A stretch of 32,000 bases of DNA from Trichlorobacter lovleyi SZ (GCF_000020385.1 NC_010814.1:1500001-1532000), one strand, 5' to 3'. Shown: positions 1 to 26,368, numbered from the stretch's first letter. The notes: generated from the sequence alone by a model not told the origin. Made by a program: numbers and translations.

Positions 1-1079
1 AATACCGGATTGACGGGGTGCTTTACCAGGCCAATGATCCGATTGACCTCCACTTTCAGGGACCGATCATCTCCCGCCTCAAGATCATGAGTGAGCTGGA
101 TATTTCTGAACGACGCATTCCTCAGGATGGCCGTTTCAAGATCCGTTTGGGGGACAAGTCGATTGACTTCCGGGTGTCGATCATGCCCAGCGCCCATGGC
201 GAAGATGCGGTCATCAGGATTCTTGATAAAGAAAGTATTGCCGCCGAGATGAAAGGTTTAAGTCTTGAGCATCTTGGCATCCATCCCCGCGAACTGACCC
301 GTATCAGGCGCAAGATTCGCGAACCGTACGGCATGGTGCTGGTGACCGGCCCCACCGGTTCAGGTAAGACCACCACCCTGTACGCTGCCTTAACCGAAAT
401 CCATACCGGTCTGGACAAGATCATTACCATTGAAGACCCGGTTGAATATCTGCTGAAGGGGGTGCTGCAGATCCCGGTCAATGAAAAAAAGGGACTGACC
501 TTTGCCCGCGGTCTACGCTCCATCCTGCGCCATGACCCGGACAAGATCATGGTGGGGGAGATCCGCGATCCCGAAACCGCCCAGATCGCGGTGCAGTCGG
601 CCCTGACCGGACACCTGGTCTTTACCACGGTCCATGCCAACAACGTGCTGGATGTGATCGGGCGTTTTACCCACATGGGGCTCGATCCCTACAACTTTGT
701 CTCTTCACTGAACTGTGTCATTGCCCAACGGCTGGTTCGTAAGGTCTGTAAAGAGTGTCGCCGGCCGGTCGACCTGACGGATCAACAGTTGCGCGAGGCG
801 GCCATTGACCCTGCCTGGCGTGCCACTGCCACCTTCTATGAGGCGGTTGGCTGTGATGCCTGTAACAGTACCGGCTATCGGGGGCGTTCCGCCATTATTG
901 AGATGCTGGAGATGAATGATGAGCTGAGGGATATGATCGTATCCAAGACGCCGGCGGTGCGGCTGAAACAGGTTGCCCGTGAACAGGGGACGGTCTTTCT
1001 GCGGGAGGCAGCAGTAGAAAAGCTGTGTGCCGGTGATACCACGTTGCAGGAAATCAACCGCGTGACATTTGTGGAATAG
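1..1079 (+). CDS. Type II secretion / type IV pilus assembly ATPase (GspE/PilB family), 5'-truncated by the window edge
   Basis: Frame is open from nt 3 (YRIDGVLYQ..., typical GspE core). Walker A GPTGSGKTTT (348-377), Asp box ITIEDPVEY, Walker B DKIMVGEIRD, His box GHLVFTTVHAN, and tetracysteine CKEC...CDAC Zn motif. Stop TAG at 1077-1079. Confidence 0.93.
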   Translation, partial: YRIDGVLYQANDPIDLHFQGPIISRLKIMSELDISERRIPQDGRFKIRLGDKSIDFRVSIMPSAHGEDAVIRILDKESIAAEMKGLSLEHLGIHPRELTRIRRKIREPYGMVLVTGPTGSGKTTTLYAALTEIHTGLDKIITIEDPVEYLLKGVLQIPVNEKKGLTFARGLRSILRHDPDKIMVGEIRDPETAQIAVQSALTGHLVFTTVHANNVLDVIGRFTHMGLDPYNFVSSLNCVIAQRLVRKVCKECRRPVDLTDQQLREAAIDPAWRATATFYEAVGCDACNSTGYRGRSAIIEMLEMNDELRDMIVSKTPAVRLKQVAREQGTVFLREAAVEKLCAGDTTLQEINRVTFVE

Positions 1080-1211
1080 GTGGTACACTTTTTAAACCGA
1101 ACAAGTTTCTTATCTGCAGGATACATGTGACATCTGCCTGACTGCCGGCCGGTAACACCTTCCTCCACCCCTCCTGGCCAGCCTAGGCCGCTGTTAATCA
1201 GGAGGTGGCTT

Positions 1212-4200
1212 ATGAACCTTCAGTCCGGCCCGATAACGTTTACTTTTATAGTAGGAACCCTCCTCTTAAACCTCCGCTTCTTGTCCCTGCCTCGGATTCT
1301 TGTCCTTAGCCTGCTACTCACTGCGGTTTCGCCGGCATTCGTGCTTGCTGACGATATCTGCGGCTGGGGTACGTCCACCAAGTGGAAGGTTAAGATGCAT
1401 CTGACCCAGGTGCTGAGCAAGTCGGGAATTCTGCAATCAGGGCCTGACTGTACTGCCAACTATGTGCTGGCGCTGGACCATGTCTCGGATGTAAGAGGCG
1501 AGTTCATCAGCAGCGGAACGCCTGGCCAGTATCAGGGAGACCTGACGAGCACTGAGGTCGTGAACAACATGATGGACATTCCGTTCACCGGCAGGCCTGA
1601 GTGCAGCTATGGGAATGTCTACTTTACCGAAATAGGTACTGGAGAAGGAGCTGAAAGTGCTGTTCCGTTTACCATCGATACTGCGATGGGGAAGTACACC
1701 ATCAGATTTCCACATACCGGGGTTGATATTCCATTCAATTATATCACCATGTATGGAGGGTATTCGGGAACACTTAATAAAGAGATCAACGGCGGGTTCA
1801 TTATAGACTATCCAGGCATGGTACTTGCCGAAAGCCCATCCGATCCGGTCACTACCCTTGAATTTCCGCTGCCAGGCGCCTCCCCCCAAATCATCACCGG
1901 CGAAACCACCTTTCCTCACCAGCAGTACCCTGAAATTCCGGTCACCTGGTCATGGGAGTTGACACCTGATGCCGGCGGGGCTGAAAAGGAGCTGGGCGCA
2001 CCCGGCGGCATGGGCAAGGGGAACGGTGGAGACATGGCCCCTGGCGCGGGATACGGTGCGCCGAGCTGGACCGTCAATATGGCGAACCTCAACATCTTCA
2101 TCACCGATACCCCGCTTTGGTACAAAAGCCCGATCGGCCCTGCGGTGGAAGTCTCCTTCAGCTACAATTCCAAGGCGGTGTCCAACCGCTTTGAACCGGC
2201 CGGCCGCAACTGGCAGCTGAACTACGAGAGCTACCTTGCTCCTGATCCGGTCAGCGGCGATGTGACCATCTACATGCCGGACGGGCGCCGCGATGTCTAT
2301 ACCTATGATGCAAACACCGCGAAGTTCACCCCGCCCTACCGGGTCTTCAACGAGCTGACGGTGGTGGCTGGGGATTACCGGCTGGCCTTTCCCGACGGCA
2401 CAGTCTATATCTACAAAGTCCCCTCCGGCCAATTTATCTGGGCCTTTCTGACCGAGATCCGCGATCCCCACTATCCCACCGACCCCAGTAACAAGCTGAC
2501 GCTCTATTGGGATCCGCTTCCCAACTCGCCGTGGGGGGGAAAGCTCAACCGGATCACCGATGCCCTGGGGCGCTCGACCACCTTCTTCCATAATGCCGAC
2601 AACCGGATCTACTCGATCCTTGACCCGTTCGGCCGCACCGTTTCCCTCACCTACGACAGCTTCGGCAACCTGACCCGCATAACTGACATGGGAGGCTTTT
2701 CAAGCTCCTTCAGCTATGACGGGTGCGGCACCATCCAGACCATAACCACCGGAAATAACAAGGTGACATTTACCTCCGGATTCAACAGCCTGACTGTCAG
2801 TGATTACATGGGGAGCGAGACCTTCACACTCAATCCGCTGACCGGAGAAGCAAGCTATCAGGGGGCCAATGCAGCAGCCGGTTCCACCTACGGCTATACC
2901 AAGACCGCCACACCGGACGGTAACAGTGATATCACCGGCTTCCAGACACCTGAAGGGGTCGGTTTCAATTACAGCTATGACAGCAAGGGAAATCTGCTCA
3001 CCCAAACCCTGCAGGGGGCAGCTGGCAACGAGACCTCCACCTTTACCTACAACTCAAAGGGGAAGGTTACCTCGGTTGTGCCACCCGTCGGTGCCCGCAC
3101 TGATATCACCTATGCCGCTAATGCTGTTGATCCGCTGACCGTGACCCAGGCCGGGCTTGGCACCATTACCGCCACCTACAATACGACCCATGACATCCTG
3201 TCGCTTACAGATCGGATGGGACTTGCCAAAACTTTTACCTTCAACCTCTCCGGTCAGCCAACCAGCTCACTGGGCGCCGGAATTCTGACCAGTTTCAGCT
3301 ATGACAGCAACAAACAGCTTACCGGCATCACCCGGGCCGGGACGGCAGTTGGCAGCTACAGTTACGACACCATCGGCCGGCTTGCCTCATATACCGACCA
3401 GAACGGCTTCACCCTGCAGCGGAGCTACAACAACCTCGACGACCTGGTCAGCATCAGCTATCCTGACAGCTCGTCAGCGGCCTTCATCCGTTCGACAACG
3501 GTACCGCACCTGCTCGACAGCATGACCGATCAGGCCGGGCGCACCACCTCCTATTTCTACAACCCCCACAGTCAGCTGCGGGAAATACTCGATCCGATTG
3601 GAGGACGCACTCGTTTCACCTACGATGCGGCCGGCCATGCCAGCCAGCTGACCGACCCCAACGACAACGTTACCTACTTCAGCTACAACAAGGACAACCG
3701 GCTGACCCGCAAGCAGTACGCGGACGGCAGCAGCATACAGTTCGCCTATCCCCATGGCCGGATGACCTGGGCCAGCAATGCCCGGGGGACCACCTCAACC
3801 TATTCGTATGACCGTAACGGCAACCTGCTGACAGTGTCCTACTCAGACGGCACGCCGGGGGTCACCACTACCTACGATGCCTATAACCGTCCTGTCACCG
3901 TCGCCGATGCCCTGGGCAGCCGCACCATCAGCTACGACGCATCCTCCAGGGTGACCTCCATCGACGGCCCCTGGGCAAGCGATACGATTACTTTCAGTTA
4001 TGACACTTTGGGGAGGAAGACCTCAGTAGCGCTCCAGCTGGGTCTGACCGCAAACTACAGCTATGACTCACTTGACCGGTTGACAACGGTAACCGGTAAC
4101 GGCACGACCTACACTTACAGCTATCAGGGGGGAGGGACGCTCCTGCAGCGGCTGGCCCGTTCCGATAGCAGCAAGACCGACTACAGCTATGATCCGGTTA

Positions 4201-5606
4201 TGAAACGTCTGCAGCAGCAGATTAACTATCTTTCGACCGGCACGGTCCTGAACGGCTACAGCTACAGCTTCGATTCCCTTGGCCAGCCAACGGGCGAGAC
4301 CGTTACCAACGGCCCGGCCCTGCAGTTTGTGGCCGCCGGAACCGTTGATGCTACCTACAACAATCTGAATCAGGTTGCGACCTGGGGCGGATCCGCAACG
4401 GCAATCAGCTACGATGCCGACGGAAACATGACCAAAGGACTCACTCCTGATGGCCGGGCGTTTACCGCGACCTACGATGCTGAAAACAGGATGACCTCGA
4501 TCCAGTACACCGACGCCGGTGGTGTGATCAGGAGGCAGGAGTTCACCTACGGCTCCGACGGCTATCTTGGGATTCAGAGAAGTTTCGCCAACAGCGTGCT
4601 GACCGGTGAACGGCGTTTTATCTGGGATGCCGGAAAGCTGCTGCAGGAACGTGACGGCAGCAACGCCGTGGTGCGTGACTATCTCTGGGGGATCAATCAG
4701 CCGGGCGGCGTGGGGGCACTGCTCTCGCTCAAACAGGGCGGGGCGGCGTACCAGGTGTTTTCCAACCCCCGGGGGGATGTCACCGCTGTACTGAACAGCT
4801 CCGGTTCGGTTGTCGCCTCATATGCCTACGACCCGTTTGGTGGAACCCTTGCAGCCAGCGGCACCCTCAGCCAGCCGATCCGCTATTCAACCAAGCTGTA
4901 TGATGAAGGGACCGGGCTCTACTACTTTGGCCACCGCTTCTACTCGCCGCAGATGGGGCGCTGGCTCTCCCGCGATCCGCTGTCTGAGATGGCCTCCATC
5001 AACCTGTATCGCTTTGCAGCCAACAACCCGCTCACTCACTTTGATCCGTTCGGTGCTGCCGACAACGGCGGGTTCTGGGATCGGCCGGAGGTTCAGGCCC
5101 AGCTCCAGGCGCAACGGGAGGCATTGCAGGCAAAACGTGCCTCGGAAGTCACTACCTTTGAGAAGGTAAAAAACAGCATTGGATCAGCATTCAAGTGGAT
5201 CGGCGACAAGTTCAAGGAACAGCCGGAAATGGCCAGGTCGATCGAGGAAAAAGTGGCTAATACCGCACTTGAAGCCAATAAGTACACCAAGGCAGGCAAG
5301 GAGTGGAACGAACGGATCAACACCGGGATTCAGATGGCTGAGGATTATGGCACCGTAAAGGCCGCCCTCAAGGATGATGATCCTGCCTCTGGTCTGACCC
5401 TGATCAAGGTAGGAGCAAAATACACTGTCGGTCGTATACCGGGCGTCGGTGAGGCATATTCAGAAGTCATCGTTAAAGCGGTCGAGACCGTTGAGAACGC
5501 TCCTGGCGGTGTTGAGGCGGCACGCAGGATGCGGGCGACCGGCGGCACCAACAACAGCAACGAAGCAGTCCAGTTGGGGCAGGTGGACAACGGAGGCGGG
5601 CAATGA
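1212..5606 (+). CDS. RHS/YD-repeat protein with N-terminal Sec-type signal and variable C-terminal (toxin-like) domain
   Basis: AGGAGG at 1200-1205 lies 6 nt before the ATG. Hydrophobic N-terminus ends ...SPAFVLA/DD. Dozens of YD repeats (YSYDxxGNL, FxYDxxGR, TYDAxNR). RHS core terminus is LYYFGHRFYSPQMGRWLSRDPL...YRFAANNPLTHFDPFG, with the Gly codon at 5052-5054. A 183-aa tail (5055-5603) follows. Confidence 0.92.
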   Translation: MNLQSGPITFTFIVGTLLLNLRFLSLPRILVLSLLLTAVSPAFVLADDICGWGTSTKWKVKMHLTQVLSKSGILQSGPDCTANYVLALDHVSDVRGEFISSGTPGQYQGDLTSTEVVNNMMDIPFTGRPECSYGNVYFTEIGTGEGAESAVPFTIDTAMGKYTIRFPHTGVDIPFNYITMYGGYSGTLNKEINGGFIIDYPGMVLAESPSDPVTTLEFPLPGASPQIITGETTFPHQQYPEIPVTWSWELTPDAGGAEKELGAPGGMGKGNGGDMAPGAGYGAPSWTVNMANLNIFITDTPLWYKSPIGPAVEVSFSYNSKAVSNRFEPAGRNWQLNYESYLAPDPVSGDVTIYMPDGRRDVYTYDANTAKFTPPYRVFNELTVVAGDYRLAFPDGTVYIYKVPSGQFIWAFLTEIRDPHYPTDPSNKLTLYWDPLPNSPWGGKLNRITDALGRSTTFFHNADNRIYSILDPFGRTVSLTYDSFGNLTRITDMGGFSSSFSYDGCGTIQTITTGNNKVTFTSGFNSLTVSDYMGSETFTLNPLTGEASYQGANAAAGSTYGYTKTATPDGNSDITGFQTPEGVGFNYSYDSKGNLLTQTLQGAAGNETSTFTYNSKGKVTSVVPPVGARTDITYAANAVDPLTVTQAGLGTITATYNTTHDILSLTDRMGLAKTFTFNLSGQPTSSLGAGILTSFSYDSNKQLTGITRAGTAVGSYSYDTIGRLASYTDQNGFTLQRSYNNLDDLVSISYPDSSSAAFIRSTTVPHLLDSMTDQAGRTTSYFYNPHSQLREILDPIGGRTRFTYDAAGHASQLTDPNDNVTYFSYNKDNRLTRKQYADGSSIQFAYPHGRMTWASNARGTTSTYSYDRNGNLLTVSYSDGTPGVTTTYDAYNRPVTVADALGSRTISYDASSRVTSIDGPWASDTITFSYDTLGRKTSVALQLGLTANYSYDSLDRLTTVTGNGTTYTYSYQGGGTLLQRLARSDSSKTDYSYDPVMKRLQQQINYLSTGTVLNGYSYSFDSLGQPTGETVTNGPALQFVAAGTVDATYNNLNQVATWGGSATAISYDADGNMTKGLTPDGRAFTATYDAENRMTSIQYTDAGGVIRRQEFTYGSDGYLGIQRSFANSVLTGERRFIWDAGKLLQERDGSNAVVRDYLWGINQPGGVGALLSLKQGGAAYQVFSNPRGDVTAVLNSSGSVVASYAYDPFGGTLAASGTLSQPIRYSTKLYDEGTGLYYFGHRFYSPQMGRWLSRDPLSEMASINLYRFAANNPLTHFDPFGAADNGGFWDRPEVQAQLQAQREALQAKRASEVTTFEKVKNSIGSAFKWIGDKFKEQPEMARSIEEKVANTALEANKYTKAGKEWNERINTGIQMAEDYGTVKAALKDDDPASGLTLIKVGAKYTVGRIPGVGEAYSEVIVKAVETVENAPGGVEAARRMRATGGTNNSNEAVQLGQVDNGGGQ

Positions 5607-5626: not shown

Positions 5627-6622
5627 ATGAAAAAACTACAGCGGATGGCGTTCGTTCTGGTACTTGCCGGACTGCTTGCTGTTCCGGCTGTTGCTCATGC
5701 CGTCAATGCCACCTACCGGTATGACCGCCTGAACCGCCTGACCAGTGTGACCTACGACAACGGCATGTCGATCGCCTACAGCTATGACAAAACCGGTAAC
5801 CTGATCAGGATTGCCCGGGGGATAAACGGTGCAGATGTTATTCCTCCCACGGTTACAGCCTTTAGCCTGCCTGCTGAAAGCAACAGTCTTGTCGTCCCCG
5901 TCAGCGTCTTCAGCGCAACCGATAACGTGGCCGTAACCGGGTACTGTGTTATGTCGACTGATAGCGCTGCCGGATGTTCCTGGAGCGCCAGTCCTCCGAC
6001 GAGCTATACCTTTGCCTCTGGAACGGCAAACGGCAGCCATACCCTCTATGCCTTTGCCAGGGATGCAGCAGGCAACAGCTCTACGGCAATAGCGGTAACA
6101 ACACAATTAGCAGTGCTCCAGCAGCAGTTGTCAGTGACCATTCTGGGGTTGTACGGCGGAGGCGGTTCCGTTACCAGCAGCCCTGGCGGTATCGCCTGTA
6201 CCAGCGGTACCTGTACTGCAGAGTACGCCAACGGGACTTCCGTTACGTTGATACCTGCACCGGATACGAGTTCAGTCTTTACCGCCTGGTCAGGCAACTG
6301 TACCGGCAGCAGCAACTGTACGGTCAGCATGACTGCGGATCGCAGTGCAACTGCCAGCTTCAGCCTGATTCCGCGGGCCAGAGTAGCAGGGATACCCTAT
6401 GGCAGTCTTGCCAGTGCCTATGCAGCTGTTCTTGCCAGCGGAGTGCTGGAGGCCCAAGCGCTGACTTTTGTGGAAGATCTTGCCCTGAACCGTGGCATTG
6501 TGTTCACTCTTCGGGGCGGTTTTTCCACTGATTACCTCAGCCGTACGGGGTATACCACCCTGCAGGGCAGGCTGACGGTGGGGACGGGGGCTGTCACGAT
6601 TGACCGGCTGATTATCAAGTAG
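5627..6622 (+). CDS. Secreted protein: signal peptide, two orphan YD repeats, Ig-like domain, Cys-containing B-repeat-like domain, shared terminal module
   Basis: AAGGAG at 5615-5620 lies 6 nt before ATG 5627 (MKKLQRMAFVLVLAGLLAVPAVAHA). The track ORF starts at 5603, overlapping the rhs stop as ATGA. Contains YRYDRLNRLTSVTYDNGMSIAYSYDKTGNL, DNVAVTGY Ig-like region, and GGGSVTSSPGGIACTSGTCTAEY...FTAWSGNCTGSSNCTV. Ends TLRGGFSTDYL...LTVGTGAVTIDRLIIK. Confidence 0.85.
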   Translation: MKKLQRMAFVLVLAGLLAVPAVAHAVNATYRYDRLNRLTSVTYDNGMSIAYSYDKTGNLIRIARGINGADVIPPTVTAFSLPAESNSLVVPVSVFSATDNVAVTGYCVMSTDSAAGCSWSASPPTSYTFASGTANGSHTLYAFARDAAGNSSTAIAVTTQLAVLQQQLSVTILGLYGGGGSVTSSPGGIACTSGTCTAEYANGTSVTLIPAPDTSSVFTAWSGNCTGSSNCTVSMTADRSATASFSLIPRARVAGIPYGSLASAYAAVLASGVLEAQALTFVEDLALNRGIVFTLRGGFSTDYLSRTGYTTLQGRLTVGTGAVTIDRLIIK

Positions 6623-6895: not shown

Positions 6896-9800
6896 CTACT
6901 TGACGACGATCTGATCCAGGATCAGGGTGCCGGCTTGAATGGTGAGCGGCGAAGTTATATCAGTATAGGTCGTACTTGGTGAGTTGCGTAACTCAAACGC
7001 ATTGTCGTACCCTCCGGCAATTTTCACGGTGATATTGGCTCGATTGTAGGAAAGGTTAGGAGCCTGAAGGCTGTCGTGGGCGCGAACCTCGTTGCCGTTT
7101 GCGGCATTCGTCAGCGCCTCAAGGAGGGTGTCATAGTAGGTCGTTAATGTAATGTTTTTGAGCTGTTTGAGCGAGAAGGTGGTGATAGCAGTCTTGTCGC
7201 TGCTCATCGTGAAGGTACATGGTTCAGCACTGCAGGCGCCACTCCACCCGCCAAAAGACGATTCCGGGAGGTGTGGAGTCGCCGTCAGGGTTACAGAGGT
7301 GCCGGAGTTGATCTGGGCTGTGCAGGTGCCCGGACAGTTAATGCCGCCTGTGTTCGAGGTGACGGTGCCTGTGCCATAGCCGGATAGGGTTACCGTAAGA
7401 GTATAGGGGGTAACCACCGTAAAGGAAGAACTGCTGGAAGCGCTACCGGTGGCTGTGGTAACACCGATAACGCCGGATAGTGCGCCAACAGGCACAGTGG
7501 CAGTTATTTGTGTCGGGCTGTTAACGGTGAATGAAATTGCCTGAACACCGCCAAACGTAACGTTAGTCACATTGATGAAACTTGTGCCGGTAATGGTGAT
7601 GCTGGCACCAACCGCACCACTGCCGGGAGTGAAACCTGAAACCGTTGGAGCCGCTACGACACCGCCGATCCCGCCGGAGGTAGAAGCCTCTGCAACTCCT
7701 GTTGAGCTGATGGAGCTAAAGGTATAGCCAGGTGCCGAGGCGTTGATGGTCAGCTTGTCGCCGTGGTTGACATTGGCGAACAGCACCACACCACCGCCGG
7801 CAGTTGAGGTGGAGGTGCCGGTATAATTGGTACCGTTATAATACTGCGCAACATAGGTGGTACCGCTGGAACCGACTGCCGTAACCGTGGCACCGTCAAT
7901 TGGCGTAGAGGTGCCCTGTACCAGGACGCGGGTGGAAACCGCCCCTTTGCCCGGGGTTGTCATGCCAGACAGGCTGTTCAGCTCGGCATAAGTTCTCATC
8001 TTGTAGGGAAATGATGCTGTTGTGCTGCTGCCGGCTGACATGCCCATTTTCTTGGTGTAATGGGGTTGTTTGCCGCTCGCCATGAACCGCAGGCTGAATG
8101 GCGTGGCAGTGCTGTTGGGCAGATTATTCAAAGTGAAGTTGCCGCTGCTATCAGTTGTGGTGGTGATGGACGGGTTACCTACCATGGTCACCGTGACGCC
8201 GCTGATGGGAGTACCGGCATTATCCACCACCTGACCGCTGTGGGTAGTGGGAGAGCCGAGACTTAAGGGCGCGCCATAATAACCGGCAGGACCCCAGGTA
8301 TAGGTTCCGGCTGTTGTTGTAACCACCAGCGGATTTGAAGGGCCGCCAAAACCGCCCGGCACGGTTGCAGTGATCTGCGTGCTGGTGGAGCTGGTGACAG
8401 AGAGCGGTGTACCACCGACTGTCACACTGGTCGGGCCGGCAAGATTGTAACCCTTAATGGTGAGAGTCCCTCCAGGCACCACAGAGGCCGGACTGATGCC
8501 GGTAATCAGAGGTGCTGATTGGGCGGTGACAAACCCTGCCTGGTACTGGATCTCGTTGTCGTTGGCATCCATTGCGGTCAGGGTCCAGCCGTAAGCACCG
8601 GTTGCCGTGGGAAGCGTGAATCCGTCATCGCTGGTATTATAGCTGGTGATCGTTGACGTCAGATTGTCCGTTGACCAGAGCTGATTGTAGTTGATGTCCT
8701 GCAGCCAGATCGCGTAGCTGTACCATTCTCCCGGTGGGGTGGCCGGCGGCAGCCAGCTGAAGACCGGGCTGCCATTGCTAGTCCCCTTGGTGAGGTCATT
8801 GTAGGGAACGGGAAAGATCGGTGCCAGCGGCCAGGGAGGGCTGTTATAAGGGGCCGTTGTTAAAACCGTGTAGGCATCGCTGCCGCCCTCAAGGTAGTAG
8901 ACGGTCACGGTGTAGCTGTCACCGGCTTGAGCCTTTTTCAGTCCCTGGATATTCAGTTCCAACCTGCCGTTTTCATATGAGTTGCCAAGGTCTACCGGAG
9001 TAACAACGTAGCCTGACCCGCTTGAAGGTGCGCTGGTGAGAGTGGCGTTGATCGGTGTCTTGAGTTGGGGAGTTACCAGCAGCCGGTACTGAAATTGTTC
9101 ACCGGAATTGTCTGCACCGGTCTCACCATACAGGGTGTGCGAGGTTCGTGCCTGCAGTACCGCGCCGGTTGTGGGCAGGTTGACCGCTATACCGCTTACG
9201 TTGGCATTGGTAATGGTGACCCGTACCCCGGCGCTTTCCTTGATCCGCAGGTCACCGGCATCATCGATGCCGTTGTTGTTCATATCAATAAAGCCCTGGA
9301 TGCCGTACTTGCCGGCAGGCAGGTTGGGGATGGTGAAGCTCTGACTGTTGGCTGCAGGGGTGGCATAGCCGACAAAATAGGGATAACCGTTTTCGTCCAG
9401 TGCAGCTAATCCCAGAGGTCCGGTAGGGGTGACGCCGGTGTAGGTGACGGTGCCTGAGATCGAGTAGCTTCCCTGTGGAAGCTGACCGGCCGGGCTCCAG
9501 GTGCTGGCAGCGGTGCTACCGGTGCTGCTTACCGCCACAACTTTGTAGTAGTAGGCGGTCGTTGCACCGGCGTGAATCCACATGCCGTTGCCATTGGCCG
9601 GAACATTAAGCTTTGAGCCGATAATTGATGCGTCACTACCCGCAGAGCTCCAGTAAATGTTGTATTTAACTGGTATTTCAAGTCCGCTGCTGTTTCTTGG
9701 AGGATCCCAATTAACAAGGTTTGCCGAATTGTTTTGCGATCTTGCAGCTCCCACGTTGGTAGGAGCGGCAAGTGTTGCCGGAGTGGGATCGGTGAGTGTG

Positions 9801-10183
9801 ATGTTGATGCCGGTGGTGTCGCCGGTCACATTGCTAAGATAGACAATCCCGGCTGGATCGCTGTCATGCTGAATGCCGGTGCCGGTGCTGTCAAGATACG
9901 CCTTGACCGGATAACCCCCGATTCCTGCACCTCTGATGGTAAAACTACCGCTATAGCTCCCTGAACTGCCGGTAAGTGTTGTGGAAACACCAACATTCCA
10001 GAGGTTGTAAATAACACTTGAACTACCGTTTGCCACCAGGTAGACCCTGCCGGTCTTGCTGCCGTTATAGGTGATTGTGCCGGATAGCGTTGCTGTCGGC
10101 GCTACCGATGCTTGGCAAATGCTACTGAACCCAAGCAGTATCATGGCCATAATGGGCAGTATGAGTTTTGTCAAGGTGCGCAT
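6896..10183 (-). CDS. Giant secreted adhesin-like protein (duplicated beta-sandwich N-domains, FN3, 2x IPT/TIG, carboxypeptidase-regulatory-like domain, B-repeat, shared terminal module)
   Basis: Likely start is ATG 10183 (MRTLTKLILPIMAMILLGFSSICQA, preceded by a G-rich aaagggggc). The track ORF extends to TTG 10261. IPT-like PLITGISPASVVPGGTLTIKGYNL and PTVSGFTPGSGAVGASITITGTSF, FN3-like VKYNIYWSS...YYYKVVAV. Ends ...IAGGYDNAFEL...PLTIQAGTLILDQIVVK. Confidence 0.85.
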   Translation of the reverse strand: MRTLTKLILPIMAMILLGFSSICQASVAPTATLSGTITYNGSKTGRVYLVANGSSSVIYNLWNVGVSTTLTGSSGSYSGSFTIRGAGIGGYPVKAYLDSTGTGIQHDSDPAGIVYLSNVTGDTTGINITLTDPTPATLAAPTNVGAARSQNNSANLVNWDPPRNSSGLEIPVKYNIYWSSAGSDASIIGSKLNVPANGNGMWIHAGATTAYYYKVVAVSSTGSTAASTWSPAGQLPQGSYSISGTVTYTGVTPTGPLGLAALDENGYPYFVGYATPAANSQSFTIPNLPAGKYGIQGFIDMNNNGIDDAGDLRIKESAGVRVTITNANVSGIAVNLPTTGAVLQARTSHTLYGETGADNSGEQFQYRLLVTPQLKTPINATLTSAPSSGSGYVVTPVDLGNSYENGRLELNIQGLKKAQAGDSYTVTVYYLEGGSDAYTVLTTAPYNSPPWPLAPIFPVPYNDLTKGTSNGSPVFSWLPPATPPGEWYSYAIWLQDINYNQLWSTDNLTSTITSYNTSDDGFTLPTATGAYGWTLTAMDANDNEIQYQAGFVTAQSAPLITGISPASVVPGGTLTIKGYNLAGPTSVTVGGTPLSVTSSTSTQITATVPGGFGGPSNPLVVTTTAGTYTWGPAGYYGAPLSLGSPTTHSGQVVDNAGTPISGVTVTMVGNPSITTTTDSSGNFTLNNLPNSTATPFSLRFMASGKQPHYTKKMGMSAGSSTTASFPYKMRTYAELNSLSGMTTPGKGAVSTRVLVQGTSTPIDGATVTAVGSSGTTYVAQYYNGTNYTGTSTSTAGGGVVLFANVNHGDKLTINASAPGYTFSSISSTGVAEASTSGGIGGVVAAPTVSGFTPGSGAVGASITITGTSFINVTNVTFGGVQAISFTVNSPTQITATVPVGALSGVIGVTTATGSASSSSSFTVVTPYTLTVTLSGYGTGTVTSNTGGINCPGTCTAQINSGTSVTLTATPHLPESSFGGWSGACSAEPCTFTMSSDKTAITTFSLKQLKNITLTTYYDTLLEALTNAANGNEVRAHDSLQAPNLSYNRANITVKIAGGYDNAFELRNSPSTTYTDITSPLTIQAGTLILDQIVVK

Positions 10184-10360
10184 GATCAGGCCCCCTTTCT
10201 TGCATGCATTTTTTTGTTGTATACAGTTAAAAAGCGTAGCTCTGCACTGCCTGCTTGTCAAGCAACCAATTGCGAATGTTTTAGGGGAGAATTAAGAGCC
10301 ATTTTGTGCTGTTAGGCTGAACCGTTGCCTGCTGGAAGGTCTGATGTCTGAAAGTGCTGC

Positions 10361-10404
10361 TTAAAAAGTAACGGCATTGACTGATTAGCCCAGTCAATGC
10401 CGTT
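10361..10404 (-). terminator. Rho-independent terminator downstream of the 10424-13420 gene
   Basis: On the - strand: aacggcattgactg / loop / cagtcaatgccgtt (14-bp stem, 10370-10404) followed by ACTTTTTAA. Begins 20 nt after the stop codon. Confidence 0.7.
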
Positions 10405-10423
10405 ACCATCATCGGAGGAAAGG

Positions 10424-10987
10424 CTATTTTATGATCAGGTTTTCCACTGTCAGGCTACCGCTTGTGCCGCCAATGGTGAGGATGCCTGCGAGTGTGCTGT
10501 AAAGACCGGCATTGCTGCTGAATGCGGCATTATAGCCACCCTTGAGGGTTATCGGCTTGGTTACGGTCAGGTTTTCTGTAAACGGTTCTGCAGCCAGGGA
10601 GGTGGCATTATGGAGTTCGCGGGCCAGGATAGTGGCGTTGTCAGCGGCATTGCCATGGGCAAGGGTTAAGGTGTCATATCCGTTGCCACCGCTGATTTTG
10701 GTCTTATAGGCACCGGCAAAGGTGCCGGTTACGGTGGTATCGGAAGCGATGGTGAAGCTGCAGCCGTCGGTGCCGGAGCAACCTCCTCCGGTCCAGCCGT
10801 TGAAGGTTGAGTTTGCATCAGCCGCTGCAGCAAGGGTCACAGTGCTGCCATCGTCAAGGGAGACTGAGCAGGTTCCGGTCTTGCTACCGCCATTGACGGC
10901 GCTACAGGAGATGCCGGAGCCGTTGATGCTGCCTCCGCCCTTGATAGCTCCGGCAGCGGTGTAGGCGTGGTTAACGGTCAGAGTGTA
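10424..10987 (-). repeat. 3' cassette copy 1 (B-repeat plus terminal module), similar at nucleotide level to copies at 13446 and 18960
   Basis: Colinear protein and DNA similarity with the other two copies. In my hand alignment of the first 168 nt against the 13446 copy there were 29 mismatches (about 83% identity). Confidence 0.85.
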
Positions 10988-13420
10988 CTGTAAAAGAGGA
11001 ATACCTGTAACGCTGATATCGTCAATGTAGATATTGTAACCGTAGGCACTGATGCTTTTTATGATCAGGAAATTGGTTGCAGAATTAAATGATTCTGGAA
11101 TGGTGAATGAATAGTTGTACCACCCGTATGAATTGACGGCAGGTGCAAGAGCTGTTGCGCGATTAACGGTTCCCAGTAGGGTTGCATTGGTCAAACTGTT
11201 ACTATTATTGACGTAGATCTCAACTCTGTCGGCATAAGAAGAACCGTTGGTGTCCCTGTACATCCAGAATGAAATGGTATTGTTGGTTGTCGTTGCCAAT
11301 GAAAACGACGGAGATATCAGCGCTGCTGCAGAGCCAGATGGAGCCCAATAGGAATTATAATAAAGTGCATTCGCGCCACTGTGAGGAGTAACGGCGTCGG
11401 TGCTTGTAGCCCAGTTGTAACTGCCTGTAACAATATTTGTTGACCAAAATGAAGGAATGCTTGGTGCCGTCACACTGTCAAAGTTTTCGCTGATGAGGGT
11501 GGTTGCCGTGGCGAAGCTTGCCGTCACAGTCGTGTCATTGGCCAGGCTGACCACGCAGGTTCCAGTGCCGGAGCAACCGCCGCCGGACCAGCCGGTGAAG
11601 ATTGAACCTGCGTCGGCAGCTGCAGTTAAGGTCACGGTCTCATTTTGCAGGAAGCTTGCCGAGCAGGTGCTGCCGCATGAGATCCCGGCCGGCGAGGAAC
11701 TGACCGTCCCGCTGCCGGTACTGCCTTTAGAAACTGTCAGGGTCTTGGTCAGTGGAGGGATAAAAGAAATGCTGCCGGTCATGGTGGCGGCCTGTGCTGA
11801 GATGCCGGTTAGACTAAAGTTGGTGGCAGTGCCGCTGTAGTAGTTTGAGTTGGGGGTGGTGACCGGTCCCCAGCTGGCATTGTTGCTGGAATAGTAGAGG
11901 GTGGTGCTGCAGCCTCGGCTTGTTGTGGTCAGCATGTTGCAGTTTGCGGTGCTAGCCTGGACCGGTACGACCCCCTGGTGCCCCCCACCGGCAACATTAT
12001 TTGTCTCGTAATCGTTAATATCATTACCTCCAACAGAGCCGGATGTAATGTCAATATGGGTAATCAGCAAGCCACCCAGCCACCCTGAACCTAGATAACT
12101 ACGAAGCCCAAGATCCCATCCAGTAGGCTGGCGGTTTTCAACCAGAAAATATTCAGTACTGCTGATAAGTGGCGACACGAATTTATAGACTGCATTCTGA
12201 GAGGAAAGCGGGTGGGCTAGTGACAAGTTGCCAGATGAGGTTGGAGTGACCGGTGTTGCCCAGCCAAGGTATTCCCGTGTCCAGGCATCTAAAGCTGTCG
12301 GTGTTACACCACTATACTCTCCGATATCTGCTCCCCAACTGCCGCCTGCCATGAGAGAAAAATGACCCATGCCTCCGTTGCTATATGAAGTGTCGTACAG
12401 GTCTGGCAGTCCACACAAGGCATGGCCAAGCTCATGTGCTATAACTCCCATCGGATGCTGAACATCTGAGTTGTTAAGTTCACCGTTAATAGCCCAGCGG
12501 GTGACGTATTTACCGCTTGCAAGTACGTCGTACCCCCCCCAAGCATGTGCCCATATCTTTGGTGTCTTGTCACTGCCTGAATCTTCGTAGCCAGCGTAGA
12601 TGAAATAAATGGAAAGCTCTGATTGTTCAAGAGTGCCATTATTGTTGGTGTCAAACGAAGCAAAATTTACATATGAGGCAGCTTGTGCCAGGGCATGATT
12701 GAGAATGGTTGTCTCGGAAGTATAATCGTAACTATTGCCAGAATTAGGATGATTGTCTGCAACGGTAACACTGACAACACCAGGCGTTGCGGATTGGGTA
12801 TGAGTTGCCGGTAGAACGTTAAGCGTACTGAATGAGTTGTCTTTGAAATATTTTGCTACTGATTTAGCACCGGCAGTTGTATCAAATATTTTTGCGCTCC
12901 AACTTGCAGGAGTTGTTGTTGTCATAGTGCGATCTGCAAAATTAACCAAAACAATCAGGAGGTTTCGATTTCCTGAAACCGGGAATGGGACCCAATTACC
13001 TGTTCCAGCTGAGATCCCCGAACTGGGTGTTGCAGATGCTTGATTCAGACGTTGTTGGTAGGTGTTTCTAATGTGCTCTGAGAGCAGCTTTTCTGCCTCA
13101 GTGTTTCTTTGCGGCTTCAGACGCTTTGGTAGATCAGCAGGAGCTTTTTGCTGAGGCATAACCTTCTGGCCTGACAAACCAAGTGAGCCGTCAGCATTTT
13201 TAGTAGCATATTCCCATTCTTTTGTTTTTTTGTTTTTCAGAACAGTATGCCCTGCTTCGGTTTCACTCCAGTTCTGAAATTCATCCCCCTGTTTACGGAT
13301 TTTGAAACTACTACCATCTGGCTGCGTCACCTCAATTAGGTCCGGCGATGCCGGACCGGCATGCAGTTGCGTGGCACAAAGACTGATGCCGATGACAAAA
13401 ATGATAATTTTATTAAGCAT
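10424..13420 (-). CDS. Secreted M6-family (immune inhibitor A-like) zinc metalloprotease with B-repeat / MAM-like / B-repeat / shared terminal module chassis
   Basis: Signal peptide MLNKIIIFVIGISLCATQLHA. N-terminal TQPDGSSFKIRKQGDEFQNWSET motif typical of M6 peptidases. HELGHALCGLPDLYD (HELGH at 12436-12422). Ends ...LKGGYNAAFSSNAGLYSTLAGILTIGGTSGSLTVENLIIK. Confidence 0.9.
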   Translation of the reverse strand: MLNKIIIFVIGISLCATQLHAGPASPDLIEVTQPDGSSFKIRKQGDEFQNWSETEAGHTVLKNKKTKEWEYATKNADGSLGLSGQKVMPQQKAPADLPKRLKPQRNTEAEKLLSEHIRNTYQQRLNQASATPSSGISAGTGNWVPFPVSGNRNLLIVLVNFADRTMTTTTPASWSAKIFDTTAGAKSVAKYFKDNSFSTLNVLPATHTQSATPGVVSVTVADNHPNSGNSYDYTSETTILNHALAQAASYVNFASFDTNNNGTLEQSELSIYFIYAGYEDSGSDKTPKIWAHAWGGYDVLASGKYVTRWAINGELNNSDVQHPMGVIAHELGHALCGLPDLYDTSYSNGGMGHFSLMAGGSWGADIGEYSGVTPTALDAWTREYLGWATPVTPTSSGNLSLAHPLSSQNAVYKFVSPLISSTEYFLVENRQPTGWDLGLRSYLGSGWLGGLLITHIDITSGSVGGNDINDYETNNVAGGGHQGVVPVQASTANCNMLTTTSRGCSTTLYYSSNNASWGPVTTPNSNYYSGTATNFSLTGISAQAATMTGSISFIPPLTKTLTVSKGSTGSGTVSSSPAGISCGSTCSASFLQNETVTLTAAADAGSIFTGWSGGGCSGTGTCVVSLANDTTVTASFATATTLISENFDSVTAPSIPSFWSTNIVTGSYNWATSTDAVTPHSGANALYYNSYWAPSGSAAALISPSFSLATTTNNTISFWMYRDTNGSSYADRVEIYVNNSNSLTNATLLGTVNRATALAPAVNSYGWYNYSFTIPESFNSATNFLIIKSISAYGYNIYIDDISVTGIPLLQYTLTVNHAYTAAGAIKGGGSINGSGISCSAVNGGSKTGTCSVSLDDGSTVTLAAAADANSTFNGWTGGGCSGTDGCSFTIASDTTVTGTFAGAYKTKISGGNGYDTLTLAHGNAADNATILARELHNATSLAAEPFTENLTVTKPITLKGGYNAAFSSNAGLYSTLAGILTIGGTSGSLTVENLIIK

Positions 13421-13445
13421 CTACGTGTTCCTTTATATAGAGATG

Positions 13446-14006
13446 TTATTTGATTGTCAGGTTTTCCACGGTCAGTGCTCCGCTGGTGCCCCCGATGGTG
13501 AGGATGCCTGCGAGCGTGCTGTAAAGACCGGCATTACTACTGAATCCGGCGTTGTAGCCACCCTTTAAGATGACAGGTTTGGTTATGGTCAGGTTCTCTA
13601 CAAACGGTTCAACGGCCAGAGTGGTTGCATTATGGAGTTCGCGGGCCAAAATGGTAGCACCGGAACCGGCGTTGGCATGGGCAAGGGTTAAGGTGTCATA
13701 ACCGTTACCACCGCTGATTTTGGCCTTATAGGCACCGGCAAAGGTGCCGGTTACCGTGGTATCGGCGGTGATGCTGAAGCTGCAGCCGCCGGTGCTGCAG
13801 CCGCCACCTGACCAGCCGCTGAAGGTTGAGTTTGCATCAGCCGCAGCTGCCAGGGTGACGGTGCTGCCGTTGTCAAGAGTGACCGAGCAGGTGCCGGTTT
13901 TGGTACCGCCATTGACGGAGCTGCAGGAGATACCTGAACCGCTGATGCTGCCGCCGCCATTGACAACGCCGGCTGGGGTGGAGGCATGGTTGACAGTGAG
14001 GGTGCG
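13446..14006 (-). repeat. 3' cassette copy 2
   Basis: Same as copy 1. Encodes RTLTVNHASTPAG...GTFAGAYKAKISGGNGYDTLTLAH...LTVENLTIK. Confidence 0.85.
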
Positions 14007-15824
14007 TTGGACAACGGGCACTCCTAATACACTGATGTCGTCGATATGGATGTCGTTACCATAGCCGCTGATCCCTCTTAAAAGCAGATAGTTGGTCGTA
14101 CTGGTGTAGGTGTCAGGTATGGTAAAGGTATAATTGTACCAGCCTGCGCTGGCAACCGTGGGTGACAGTGTTGTTAAACGATTGACTGTTCCCAGTAGTG
14201 TTGCGCCGGTAAGATTGGCGGCGGTGTTGACATACACTTCGGCCCTGTCATCTGCTGATGAGTAGCCTGTATCCCGGTACATCCAGAAAGAAACAGTATT
14301 GTTGGTTGTGCCTGATAGAGAAAAGACAGGTGATAGTAACACGGCAGAGTTGCCGGTGGGCACACTGTATGAGTTAAAGAACACCAGATTTGAACCACTG
14401 TGGGCAGCGATGCTGGAGGGATGTACGGTTCCTGCATGTGTTGCCCATGCTCCGCTGCTGGTTATGATGTTGGAGGACCATCCCGAGGGCAGAGCTGCAG
14501 GTGTCACACTGTCAAAATTTTCTGAAAGTAGTGTTGTTGCAGCAGTGAAAGTCGCTGTGACGGCCGTGTCATTGGTCAGGTTGACCACACAGGTTCCGGT
14601 GCCGGAACAGCCGCCTCCGGACCAGCCGCTAAAGATCGAGCCGGTGTCGCCGACAGCAGTCAGGGTTACGGAGGTGCCCTGGGTAAAGCTGCTGCTGCAG
14701 GTGCTGCCACAGGAGATCCCGGCTGGTGCTGAGGTGACGGTGCCGCTGCCGGTGCCGTTTTTGGTAACCGTCAGGGTGTACGTGGGGGTTGCAACGGTTG
14801 TCCAGCCAAGATCCTCCAGCAGGCCCATCGTAACAACACCGGGATCATGAATAGCCCGGCCGTAGGACACGGCATAGACCATCATGGCGTTGGAGGTGTT
14901 GACGAACGTCGTATAGTCCAGGTGGGAGTAACTACTACCGGGAGCCCAGGTGGTTGGCGCATACAGCTTGACGTCGGTGTTATTGTTGGCAATGTTGGCC
15001 TTGGTGCCGCTGAACCAGACGTTATTGCTGGTAAGCACTGTTCCGAGCGCTGTCGAAGGGTTCGGGAAGATGGTGGTGTTCAGGAGTGCCTGGCTGCTGC
15101 CATTATACGCAAAACGGTCATAGGCGAATATTTTCGAATAACTGCCCGTACCGCTTGATACCGTCATTCCGCCGGCAAACCCCAGCCCGTGTGCAACCTC
15201 ATGGGCAACAACCGTGATAAAATCGATTTTGTCAGAAGGGGTGTTGCCATCCGCACTATAATACCAGTCAAAAGTACTACTGTAGGCGATATACATATCA
15301 CTTTGACCAACATTAAGTTTTGATCCTGCCAGTGCATTTGCCAACGCAACCTTATAAAAGGTGTTGGGAAGCGGGGCATTGGTAAAGTTTTGATACTCTG
15401 ACAGTGAGCCTGCGTGCCCCAAGACACCGGTTGGAAGATTTGTTGCCCAGCAGGCGTCAATGGTAATCGGTACAGAGGAAATGACTCGTGTTGACCAGAC
15501 ACTTACTGCTGTTTCAAAGGATGTCTTTGCCTCATCGGGCCATGTTGTGCAGGTGTCACCTATATCGTAGGGGTCAGAGCCTGCAGGCAGATAGTTGATG
15601 ACAAAGGTACTGGCCATTACGGCAGCCTTACTCAGCTCTGAAACCGGCTTTGCAGGGAGAATGTGATTGTAGTTCGGAACCGGGTCAACCACCAAGGGCA
15701 CGACAAGCCTGCTGGTGCTGACAGAATTTTTGTCAAGGGCCAGCACGGGAGACAGGAGAAGCAAGCACAACAGCAATGAGCCGGTCACCGTTACCAATAA
15801 GCGAATAAATCTGTTTGACTGCAT
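13446..15824 (-). CDS. Secreted HEXXH zinc metallopeptidase (family unassigned) with the same C-terminal chassis
   Basis: AAGGAG lies 6 nt before ATG 15824 (MQSNRFIRLLVTVTGSLLLCLLLLSPVLA). The track ORF starts at 15845. VVAHEVAHGLGFAGG (HEVAH at 15203-15189). The B-repeat, MAM-like, B-repeat and terminal module closely resemble those of the 10424 gene. Confidence 0.85.
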   Translation of the reverse strand: MQSNRFIRLLVTVTGSLLLCLLLLSPVLALDKNSVSTSRLVVPLVVDPVPNYNHILPAKPVSELSKAAVMASTFVINYLPAGSDPYDIGDTCTTWPDEAKTSFETAVSVWSTRVISSVPITIDACWATNLPTGVLGHAGSLSEYQNFTNAPLPNTFYKVALANALAGSKLNVGQSDMYIAYSSTFDWYYSADGNTPSDKIDFITVVAHEVAHGLGFAGGMTVSSGTGSYSKIFAYDRFAYNGSSQALLNTTIFPNPSTALGTVLTSNNVWFSGTKANIANNNTDVKLYAPTTWAPGSSYSHLDYTTFVNTSNAMMVYAVSYGRAIHDPGVVTMGLLEDLGWTTVATPTYTLTVTKNGTGSGTVTSAPAGISCGSTCSSSFTQGTSVTLTAVGDTGSIFSGWSGGGCSGTGTCVVNLTNDTAVTATFTAATTLLSENFDSVTPAALPSGWSSNIITSSGAWATHAGTVHPSSIAAHSGSNLVFFNSYSVPTGNSAVLLSPVFSLSGTTNNTVSFWMYRDTGYSSADDRAEVYVNTAANLTGATLLGTVNRLTTLSPTVASAGWYNYTFTIPDTYTSTTNYLLLRGISGYGNDIHIDDISVLGVPVVQRTLTVNHASTPAGVVNGGGSISGSGISCSSVNGGTKTGTCSVTLDNGSTVTLAAAADANSTFSGWSGGGCSTGGCSFSITADTTVTGTFAGAYKAKISGGNGYDTLTLAHANAGSGATILARELHNATTLAVEPFVENLTITKPVILKGGYNAGFSSNAGLYSTLAGILTIGGTSGALTVENLTIK

Positions 15825-15875
15825 GCCTGTCTCCTTGCTGTTCATGTAGATACCTTGAAATATTATTTCCTCAGA

Positions 15876-18698: not shown

Positions 18699-18834
18699 GG
18701 CAGCCTCCTTGAAGGGTAATTTAACACTTCTTAACAAAATACCACACTTCAGGCAACGGTCAAGCTATGCCGGTGGTTTCTAGACAGACATGGTGACATC
18801 TTGACCAAACGTGCCAACCTGTTTCATGGATGCA

Positions 18835-18894: not shown

Positions 18895-18959
18895 AGGAGG
18901 CAGCAGGTCAGGACCTCAATTCTGAATGCTGCTTCCCTGTCCGGTGTCCATGCTGTGTC

Positions 18960-26309: not shown

Positions 26310-26368
26310 ATCATCTCCACAGATAACAACTTCATACAACTACCAGATTTCACCATTCAAAATTGCCT

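Follow-up and report, generated by a model that had tools for sequence, protein, structure and literature searches.

How can an Rhs protein act from a Gram-negative cell if it has a secretion signal but neither an obvious delivery system nor an immunity gene? The question is raised by a locus in Trichlorobacter lovleyi SZ, from which we analysed a stretch of 32,000 nucleotides (nt) (GCF_000020385.1, NC_010814.1:1500001-1532000; this whole stretch is called the window, and positions are counted from its first letter). A gene in the window encodes an Rhs protein of 1,464 amino acids (aa). An earlier note on this DNA had pictured the gene without accessory genes. That picture does not hold, since the gene directly downstream encodes a dedicated secreted YD-repeat partner in 9/9 loci of the clade, and the locus is thereby turned into a two-gene module. 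The reading that we favour, with about even confidence, is an Rhs cage independent of a type VI secretion system (T6SS), exported by the general secretory (Sec) pathway and tethered by the YD-tagged secreted protein as its adaptor.

As shown in Table 1, the partner gene probably starts at an ATG with its own ribosome-binding site (RBS), AAGGAG. The alternative ATG 5603, which overlaps the Rhs stop codon, is the less likely one. The single YD unit of the partner begins at the first mature residue after the signal peptide. A gene for a signal peptide and a single YD unit lies directly 3' of the Rhs gene in all nine distinct clade loci; the count covers loci with a visible 3' flank, and our statistics are for these nine and for four loci outside the clade. 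Clade loci come from the window (with the 99%-identical relatives L018 and L020), Trichlorobacter sp. MAG11, an uncultured Geobacter, T. thiogenes and T. lovleyi, and further from P0009 (L009/L024), Desulfatibacillum alkenivorans, Desulfatibacillum sp. MAG7, P0017 (L006/L007) and P0019 (L008). The nine loci span three types of Rhs tail and two types of partner C-terminus, and the YD unit is the sole part of the partner that is universally conserved.

After the YD unit, the partner has either Ig/B-repeat modules (331-339 aa in total) or a dockerin-like duplicated Ca-binding motif (132-145 aa). The duplicated motif, DxNGD...GADxDG, was seen in all four short forms, and PF00404 Dockerin_1 matched one of three short sequences below threshold (E=1.1e-3, 19.5 bits against a cut-off of 22.9 bits). 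The tail type of the window is found with both forms, Ig/B-repeat in the window itself and dockerin-like in Desulfatibacillum, while two different alternative tails are paired with near-identical dockerin-like partners. Because the type of partner does not follow the type of tail, the predicted partner is not a tail-matched immunity protein.

The same YD tag recurs outside the clade. A profile search with both partner forms detected other small secreted proteins starting with this unit, followed by PKD (P0165), Fn3-associated/CHB_HEX (P0168), Gly-rich (P0164) or dockerin-like (P0151) modules. The two that were placed, P0168 and P0165, sit downstream of unrelated Rhs genes (L029, L030) in the order Rhs, small immunity-like open reading frame (ORF), YD-tagged gene; the immunity-like ORF encodes a 134-aa four-helix membrane protein in one locus and a 193-aa cytoplasmic protein in the other. 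In a sister clade, the Rhs gene of L012 is followed by a 1,297-aa PKD protein that begins with a signal peptide and a YD unit, and that of L011 by a multi-transmembrane ORF, a truncated YD-tagged remnant, an orphan Rhs C-terminal region (Rhs-CT), a small secreted ORF and a 364-aa YD-tagged PKD protein. A YD-tagged gene is therefore found downstream of Rhs in 4/4 other Sec-type Rhs loci (L011, L012, L029, L030), three of which (L011, L029, L030) have separate small immunity-like ORFs between Rhs and partner. The T6SS-like second Rhs of L006 is accompanied by a 68-aa membrane ORF and no YD-tagged gene. The accessory was thus present in 13/14 inspected Rhs loci, and wherever a classical immunity-like ORF exists, the YD-tagged partner is a different gene. 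The searchable literature holds no description of a small YD-repeat accessory, though absence there is not proof.

Two side observations concern the tag. In the orphan array of L011 (12352-15590), the multi-transmembrane ORF is immunity-like, the YD-tagged remnant has 67 aa and the final YD-tagged PKD gene is intact, which suggests that the partner gene, too, is duplicated or decays when cassettes are displaced. The idea that the partner's YD unit mimics the terminal repeat of the Rhs protein was dropped as uninformative, the closest match being an internal repeat (aa 945-983, 50% identity).

No small cytoplasmic or co-oriented immunity ORF follows the Rhs gene in any of the nine distinct clade loci, where the next gene is the partner. 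The cognate immunity gene expected directly downstream of a polymorphic toxin is absent from 9/9 loci, and the earlier statement that no immunity ORF lies downstream thus applies to the whole clade. A 62-aa ORF overlapping the Rhs start (L007:1027-1215, L006:9351-9539) occurs only in the lineage with the P0017-type alternative tail.

The Rhs protein itself is encoded in exactly its 1,464-aa form by three independent metagenome contigs. A full-length search found about 20 orthologues with 44-87% identity, including those of T. thiogenes and D. alkenivorans, in a range from Trichlorobacter/Geobacter to Desulfatibacillum. The hydrophobic region of its predicted signal peptide, ILVLSLLLTAV, is followed by a cleavage site between VLA and DD. 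The -3/-1 rule is kept in all full-length orthologues, though their signal sequences diverge (11-63% identity), and an AxA-like site followed by (D/E)(D/G)xC is conserved across them. Neither the Rhs protein nor the window has a PAAR, prePAAR, DUF4150, VgrG, SpvB or TcB-type domain (Pfam, NCBIfam). We infer that the protein is of Sec type and T6SS-independent, its signal peptide being predicted. The earlier note had likewise read it as a Sec-signal Rhs protein that is not of T6SS type, and the ORF, the repeat matches, the signal-peptide-like N-terminus and the lack of PAAR, VgrG, DUF4150 and Tc-toxin domains all agree with this.

Pfam RHS_repeat matched the protein in seven stretches (E=5.8e-56), DUF6531 matched below threshold (E=2.2e-4, Pfam), and NCBIfam gave partial matches to YD_repeat_2x (E=1.8e-35) and RHS_core. 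The Rhs-associated core ends with NNPLTHFDPFG, as had been noticed before. Its two autoprotease aspartates, D1255 (nt 4974-4976) and D1278 (nt 5043-5045), are spaced by 23 residues and invariant in 21/21 sequences. Multiple YD repeats and a core ending in DPxG with both aspartates place the predicted protein in the Rhs/YD-repeat family. Because both catalytic aspartates are invariant, release of the tail inside the shell by predicted autocleavage is expected. Of other defining domains, Pfam found no TcB-type SpvB/mid-N/propeller or TcA match in the Rhs protein or its neighbours, and no NHL, TTR or TIP; matches to TEN_YD-shell (precomputed) were weak only, and the model of the N-domain has no fold match. 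As predicted from its sequence, then, the locus has the structure that defines Rhs proteins, has no immunity gene of the polymorphic-toxin kind, and lacks the domains that define T6SS, Tc and teneurin-like proteins. The gene is also a recombination mosaic: compared with T. lovleyi (L027), the N-domain has a nonsynonymous rate (dN) of 0.35 and a synonymous rate (dS) of 2.3, whereas dN is 0.054 for the shell and 0.022 for the tail. In P0004, the N-domain is 85% identical to that of the window protein and the tail merely 55%.

The 183-aa tail that follows DPFG had been described as Cys-free, Lys/Glu/Ala-rich, helical, Gly/Asn-rich at its end and unrecognisable, and our results agree. Its composition is A25 G20 E18 K15 V15, without Cys or His (isoelectric point 5.4), a Gly/Asn-rich stretch terminates it, and its highest 19-residue Kyte-Doolittle mean, 0.74, implies no transmembrane segment. 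AlphaFold2, with 19 aligned tails, predicted seven helices at low confidence (mean predicted local distance difference test (pLDDT) 44.5). The tail had no match in Pfam, NCBIfam, PDB sequences, a PDB profile search or Foldseek. At E<=10 Pfam returned noise only (ActA, DUF445), sequence and profile searches of the PDB just a designed protein (E=0.019), and Foldseek, which the earlier note had proposed, a meaningless list headed at E=3.1. A tblastn search of plasmids gave no match. The tail alone, run through a word-indexed search of 5.8 billion proteins, gave nothing even though orthologues exist; that tool is not sensitive enough to find them. When 1.84 billion cluster representatives were scanned exhaustively with HMMER, only 10 matches came up, one or two of them spurious. 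P0123 (3,579 aa, 26 'matches') was rejected as a trimeric-autotransporter-type adhesin in which a short GSAFxGxGDK motif is summed over repeats, and P0128, likewise a repeat protein, was rejected too.

The tail is well conserved. It is kept by 17/20 orthologues, and the identity of its middle 100 residues compared with that of the shell is 46% against 47% in Desulfatibacillum and 72% against 61% in P0013. Against the three closest relatives (L013, L014, L027), dN/dS is 0.03-0.07 for the tail and 0.11-0.14 for the shell; the tail is therefore functional, and it is under strong purifying selection with no arms race. Despite this conservation, the predicted tail is a discrete, exchangeable cassette, because one scaffold can bear other tails and unrelated Rhs cores carry the final ~90 aa. 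Three orthologues (P0016/P0017, P0019), with scaffolds 56-61% identical, carry unrelated tails after the same DPxG junction. A cassette search, suggested earlier, found the last ~90 aa as the whole C-terminal region of the unrelated Rhs cores P0125 and P0126, with the pattern AED..KDxDPASGL..K..GRIPxVG..ETVExAPGGVEAxRR..; in the alignment A1, D107, P110, S112, G113 and K118 (tail numbering) are invariant. The C-terminal region thus appears exchangeable like that of polymorphic toxins, though 17/20 orthologues keep one tail. Taken together, a tail so well conserved and the lack of an immunity gene suggest either a target beyond kin or a role without antagonism.

For the very end of the tail (~25 aa), two versions are found, shuffled between tails that are otherwise nearly identical: P0003 has 94-95% identity over the tail body but, carrying the alternative version, 36% over the end. 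The idea that ETVExAPGG is a double-glycine leader, which came from the C39 domain of the sister clade, was dropped since the -8 and -12 positions misfit in a by-eye comparison.

Where the partner could be attached may be indicated by its C-terminus. The Rhs gene follows a GspE ATPase gene, as had been noted, in a type IV pilus/type II secretion system (T2SS)-like island. The full ATPase gene in identical contigs (L001/L002) encodes 574 aa with an MshEN domain, and a GspF gene and a pseudopilin gene lie upstream. The C-terminal ~170 aa of the partner are 33-46% identical to the ends of five exoproteins encoded in the window (pairwise BLASTP, E=1.6e-16 to 1.2e-41), and a DUF5122 protein upstream of GspF (L001:3732-6815) has the same C-terminal ending. 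The module is thus common to six other exoproteins of the island, and elsewhere it follows cohesin and NHL heads (P0160-P0162, P0153). It resembles a shared module for sorting or anchoring, through which, in Geobacteraceae, the predicted pair is wired into the exoprotein set of the island.

Five genomes of Geobacteraceae keep the order ATPase, Rhs, partner, reverse-strand giants: the window, T. thiogenes, T. lovleyi, Trichlorobacter sp. MAG11 and the uncultured Geobacter. Unrelated genes, none of them pilus/T2SS-like, surround the Rhs and partner pair of Desulfatibacillum and of three metagenomic lineages. The pair is therefore an autonomous module, and the neighbouring machine cannot be its general exporter. 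Of the earlier idea of Sec plus T2SS-like export, the adjacency to the island stands for the five Geobacteraceae genomes, but the link is absent in the four other lineages.

In the tethered-cage reading, both proteins would cross the inner membrane via Sec, as their conserved signal peptides indicate. The Rhs protein would fold into a YD shell, and the D1255/D1278 autoprotease would cut after DPFG, so that the helical tail of 183 aa becomes a cargo of its own inside the shell, for which Rhs and TcC proteins offer the precedent. The single N-terminal YD hairpin of the partner may then dock on the cage, probably as an added beta-strand along an open edge of the YD sheet. Its other end would fix the complex to a surface structure, in Geobacteraceae by the Ig/B-repeat/terminal module, where the adaptor may couple Rhs to the pilus/T2SS-like machine, and in other lineages by a dockerin-like Ca-binding module or by PKD or Fn3-like modules. 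In the last and weakest step, the cargo would most likely be an effector of a new family, possibly membrane-active and aimed beyond close kin; a non-kin target would explain both why no immunity gene is present and why selection purifies the tail instead of diversifying it. Of this scheme, the domain content, the invariant motif, the mode of selection, the linkage of the genes and the shared module are shown, and cleavage, encapsulation, docking, export route and toxicity are proposed.

Several points weigh against this reading. A lack of immunity candidates in nine loci is atypical for antibacterial polymorphic toxins, including teneurin-like proteins. Unlike arms-race toxins, the tail persists all the way from Desulfuromonadota to Desulfatibacillum and diverges about as fast as the shell; neither a catalytic nor a membrane-insertion motif can be recognised in it, hydrophobic segments are lacking, and its structure model is of low confidence. 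The contact between partner and Rhs is a predicted one, based on gene linkage. As to the outer-membrane route, pilus/T2SS-like genes do not lie beside the pair in four lineages.

The alternative that survives best, although we consider it rather unlikely, is that the shell has no toxin use at all, as the earlier note had also considered. Cage and conserved tail would then be a structural or adhesive surface component, teneurin-like, for example for mineral, matrix or partner-cell attachment, and Rhs and partner would belong with the large adhesin-like exoproteins of the island. Such a role agrees with the absence of an immunity gene in 9/9 loci, with a tail dN/dS of 0.03-0.07, below that of the shell, and retention of the tail across two phyla-level lineages, with neighbours of TIG, CarboxypepD_reg, Ig and B-repeat type, and with the adhesion-type modules of the partner. 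It leaves the invariant autoprotease pair, which is sensible mainly for release of an encapsulated cargo, hard to place. Unrelated tails in three orthologues and reuse of ~90 aa on other Rhs cores are moreover the signature of effector cassettes, and related loci with the same partner type have classical toxin/immunity arrangements.

A different route of export is raised by the N-domain. It had been put at ~270 aa without a recognisable match; it is indeed unmatched, but the structured part is ~210 aa (aa 47-255), followed by a disordered Gly-rich linker. AlphaFold2, with an 18-sequence alignment, gave pLDDT ~90 over residues 4-208 and a predicted template modelling score (pTM) of 0.73, and C4, C34 and C85 (domain numbering) are invariant. 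The domain has no match in Pfam or among PDB sequences. The Foldseek search proposed earlier found no PDB or BFVD fold at E<=0.001, the top TM-score being 0.36. Outer-membrane barrels lead this weak list: a Legionella Dot/Icm porin (probability 0.98, TM-score 0.36), OmpT, the intimin beta-domain, OmpX, OmpG and OmpA, with the intimin barrel 4e1s a weak match (E=0.08, TM-score 0.19). In the sister Rhs clade, which makes up ~100 among the 120 matches listed and comes from many anaerobes, a Peptidase_C39-like domain occupies the position of the N-domain. Scans with the N-domain matched 5/185,579 species representatives and nine metagenome loci; the clade with this domain is rare.

The N-domain could thus be an outer-membrane beta-barrel that threads the Rhs passenger in the manner of an inverse autotransporter (type V-like self-export), which would be compatible with a toxin. 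Inverse autotransporters (type Ve) are defined by a closed N-terminal outer-membrane barrel of 12 strands ahead of the passenger. We regard this route as improbable. The confidently modelled antiparallel meander of ~10 strands directly after the signal peptide and the barrels at the head of the Foldseek list would fit it, and it would explain why the pair occurs in four lineages without T2SS genes. But TM-scores are only 0.1-0.36 with no match at E<=0.001, the later strands are short (5-11 residues), three invariant cysteines are unusual for outer-membrane barrels, and the C39-like domain in the same position in the sister clade is of soluble type.

Could the downstream secreted protein be a periplasmic immunity protein against a periplasm- or membrane-acting tail? 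It has the position of an immunity gene, is (nearly) translationally coupled and carries a signal peptide, and a YD-shell cargo that acts in the periplasm has precedent. This is nevertheless very improbable, for the YD unit alone is universally conserved, partner type does not track tail type, the C-terminal module is common to six unrelated exoproteins, and the loci L011, L029 and L030 have immunity-like ORFs of their own beside the YD-tagged gene. A conventional T6SS or Tc-type Rhs protein with an uncleaved N-terminus is scarcely credible: Gram-negative Rhs proteins are most often T6SS cargo (PMC4436062), but the protein and window lack every PAAR, prePAAR, DUF4150, VgrG, SpvB and TcB-type domain, the hydrophobic N-terminus and -3/-1 site are kept in all full-length orthologues despite sequence drift, and the conserved cysteines of the N-domain are consistent with an oxidising compartment.

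Like the tethered cage proposed here, some characterised Rhs proteins act without T6SS. Rhs4 and Rhs5 of Myxococcus xanthus have signal sequences and act T6SS-independently (PMC10433427), and WapA of Bacillus subtilis uses the general secretory pathway (PMC4436062). Common to them and the present protein are a signal peptide, a YD shell, a core that ends in DPxG, a C-terminal region that can be exchanged, and independence from T6SS. Those proteins, however, have cognate immunity or kin-discrimination toxicity, whereas the clade has no immunity gene in 9/9 loci, and purifying selection acts on its tail, which belongs to an unclassified family. Cell-wall-binding domains are present in WapA, and the Myxococcus proteins reach ~4,000 aa; here we find a beta-rich N-domain without a match, and the YD-tagged partner is a protein of its own.

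Bacterial teneurin-like YD-shell proteins are exported by Sec in Gram-negatives including Thermodesulfobacteriota, one cargo of ~15 kDa permeabilises E. coli only when targeted to the periplasm, and a downstream immunity gene is nearly universal (bioRxiv 10.1101/2025.11.11.687626). They resemble the present system in the Sec-exported shell, the small polymorphic cargo (~15 kDa there) and the anchoring modules for surface display. In the present Rhs protein, however, Pfam detected no NHL propeller, TTR, FN-plug or TIP; the anchoring modules are in cis in teneurin-like proteins and in trans, on the YD-tagged partner, here; and the downstream gene, a tail-specific immunity gene there, is not one here.

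In T6SS Rhs effectors such as RhsA of P. protegens and Tse15 of A. baumannii, the cargo lies inside a YD cocoon with a C-terminal autoproteolysis motif (PMC8765631, PMC11461821). Cocoon and motif are shared; the present protein differs in having a signal peptide and neither a PAAR/prePAAR or clade domain, VgrG or Eag chaperone neighbours nor an immunity gene. The short partners resemble type I dockerins in their duplicated DxNGD motif (sub-threshold in Pfam), and the cohesin-headed proteins P0160-P0162 carry the Ig/B-repeat/terminal module of the window partner. The window partner, however, has no dockerin, and no cohesin protein is known here from a genome with a dockerin-type partner.

The structural precedent for docking a separate YD hairpin is the TcB-TcC cocoon. 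In Tc toxins, the YD beta-sheets of these two polypeptides join edge to edge, and an aspartyl autoprotease frees the encapsulated cargo. The present system differs in having a Sec signal and no TcA partner, TcB-type propeller or SpvB domain, and its second polypeptide gives one YD unit and consists otherwise of attachment domains.

The remaining features of the window are collected in Table 1. The ATPase of the window is 96% identical to those of T. thiogenes, Trichlorobacter sp. MAG11 and the uncultured Geobacter, the adjoining Rhs proteins just 72-86%, a sharp change of evolutionary rate at the gene boundary. Pfam matches in the block of secreted proteins are Flg_new_2, TIG, CarboxypepD_reg, MAM and M6-like. 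Seven secreted proteins share the InlB B-repeat and ~85 un-annotated aa ending in LT(V/I)xNL(I/T)IK, and their heads differ (TIG/CarboxypepD_reg, MAM, M6-peptidase-like, DUF5122, single YD unit). GC content is 0.45-0.47 at 12001-13500, within the N-terminal half of the 998-aa gene, against ~0.56 elsewhere in the window; this head domain may have been recently acquired or recombined. In L020 (15508-16923), a 471-aa ORF with a C-terminus that by eye is transposase-like follows the partner, where the window has the convergent 1,121-aa gene. The secretin has N-terminal TPR (aa ~38-120), then FecR_C/N0-like and Secretin_N domains, which is unusual for the GspD/PilQ type. Next to the PilM-like gene, 29133-31280 (-) encodes a c-type cytochrome of the octaheme tetrathionate-reductase family (NCBIfam E=8.5e-78, below the cut-off) that also has an OmpL47-like beta-barrel domain.

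Table 1. Features of the Rhs locus and its surroundings, in window positions.
Feature	Position	Strand	Basis
GspE/PilB/MshE-family secretion ATPase, C-terminal 353 aa (gene cut by window start)	18..1079	+	Pfam T2SSE E=1.4e-115; NCBIfam GspE/PilB
RBS AGGAGG, 6 nt ahead of Rhs ATG	1201..1206	+	direct sequence reading
Rhs protein gene, 1,464 aa and stop, ATG start	1212..5606	+	ORF call, domain matches, orthologues
Predicted signal peptide, aa 1-46	1212..1349	+	inferred from hydrophobic core (KD15 = 2.29) and conserved site
Clade-specific N-domain, aa 47-255, ~10 long antiparallel beta-strands (predicted), conserved cysteines	1350..1976	+	AlphaFold2
Disordered Gly-rich linker (predicted), aa 256-~290	1977-2081	+	AlphaFold2
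DUF6531-like plug segment (aa 311-362) and YD-repeat shell (aa ~300-1205)	2109..4826	+	Pfam, NCBIfam
Rhs-associated core (Rhs_assc_core), aa 1206-1281, ending DPFG	4827..5054	+	TIGR03696 E=3.6e-23, model positions 1-75 of 76
C-terminal tail, 183 aa, aa 1282-1464	5055..5603	+	Ala/Gln/Arg-rich helix, conserved middle (AFKWIGDKFK, KYTKAGKEWNERIN), cassette sub-module
Mobile tail sub-module, ~last 90 aa	5334..5603	+	P0124, P0125, P0126, P0127 in exhaustive search
YD-tagged partner gene, probable start ATG 5627 with RBS AAGGAG	5627..6622	+	ORF, Pfam, NCBIfam
Partner signal peptide	5627-5701	+	sequence
Partner single YD unit at mature N-terminus (VNATYRYDRLNRLTSVTYDNGMSIAYSYDKTGNL)	5702-5821	+	Pfam/NCBIfam
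Partner Ig-like domain	~5840-6097	+	Pfam/NCBIfam
Partner InlB B-repeat	~6128-6370	+	Pfam/NCBIfam
Partner un-annotated terminal domain ending ...TIDRLIIK	6371-6619	+	sequence
Five large secreted proteins with same B-repeat and terminal domain (...LTVxNLIIK) as partner	6896..22025	-	pairwise BLASTP
Secreted protein, 1,121 aa	6896-10261	-	
Secreted protein, 998 aa	10424-13420	-	
Secreted protein, 799 aa	13446-15845	-	
Secreted protein, 953 aa	15876-18737	-	
Secreted protein, 1,021 aa	18960-22025	-	
Rest of type IV pilus/T2SS-like machinery	22073..28975	-	Pfam N_methyl, Secretin, Secretin_N, TPR, PilN, PilM_2; NCBIfam GspD/PilQ partial
TIG protein	22073-22972	-	
Two pseudopilins	23082-23606, 23515-24003	-	
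TPR-secretin	24000-26339	-	
Two small unannotated proteins	26369-27522	-	
PilN-like protein	27507-28055	-	
PilM-like protein	28055-28975	-	

The new elements of this locus are the tail family, the N-domain, the clade-wide absence of immunity and, above all, the YD-tagged partner as a recurrent accessory. Tentatively, and as a possibility that we rate below an even chance, a single YD repeat at the mature N-terminus of secreted proteins that are otherwise unrelated (Ig/B-repeat, PKD, Fn3-like, dockerin-like, Gly-rich) may be a general docking tag, by which modules for attachment or receptor binding are joined, through strand addition, to Sec-exported Rhs cages; the cage of this clade would have lost the toxin/immunity logic, and its conserved cargo, non-antagonistic or aimed at non-kin, would be coupled to a pilus/T2SS-like exoprotein island. 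If true, binary systems of cage and adaptor would exist in environmental Gram-negatives, parallel to TcA with TcB-TcC or to cohesin-dockerin. This bears on the largely unsolved matter of how Rhs cages that belong to neither T6SS nor Tc systems reach, are retained at and act from the Gram-negative surface; Sec-type Rhs proteins of this sort number hundreds, in anaerobic sediment and groundwater bacteria. Automated annotation tends to call any gene after a toxin an immunity gene, and the small, recognisable partner gene would separate 'adaptor' from 'immunity' in the annotation of polymorphic toxins. It is also a concrete experimental handle, and the module is present in cultured T. lovleyi, T. 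thiogenes and D. alkenivorans. With its conserved cargo and no immunity gene, the clade is a natural test of an Rhs cage kept beyond kin warfare.

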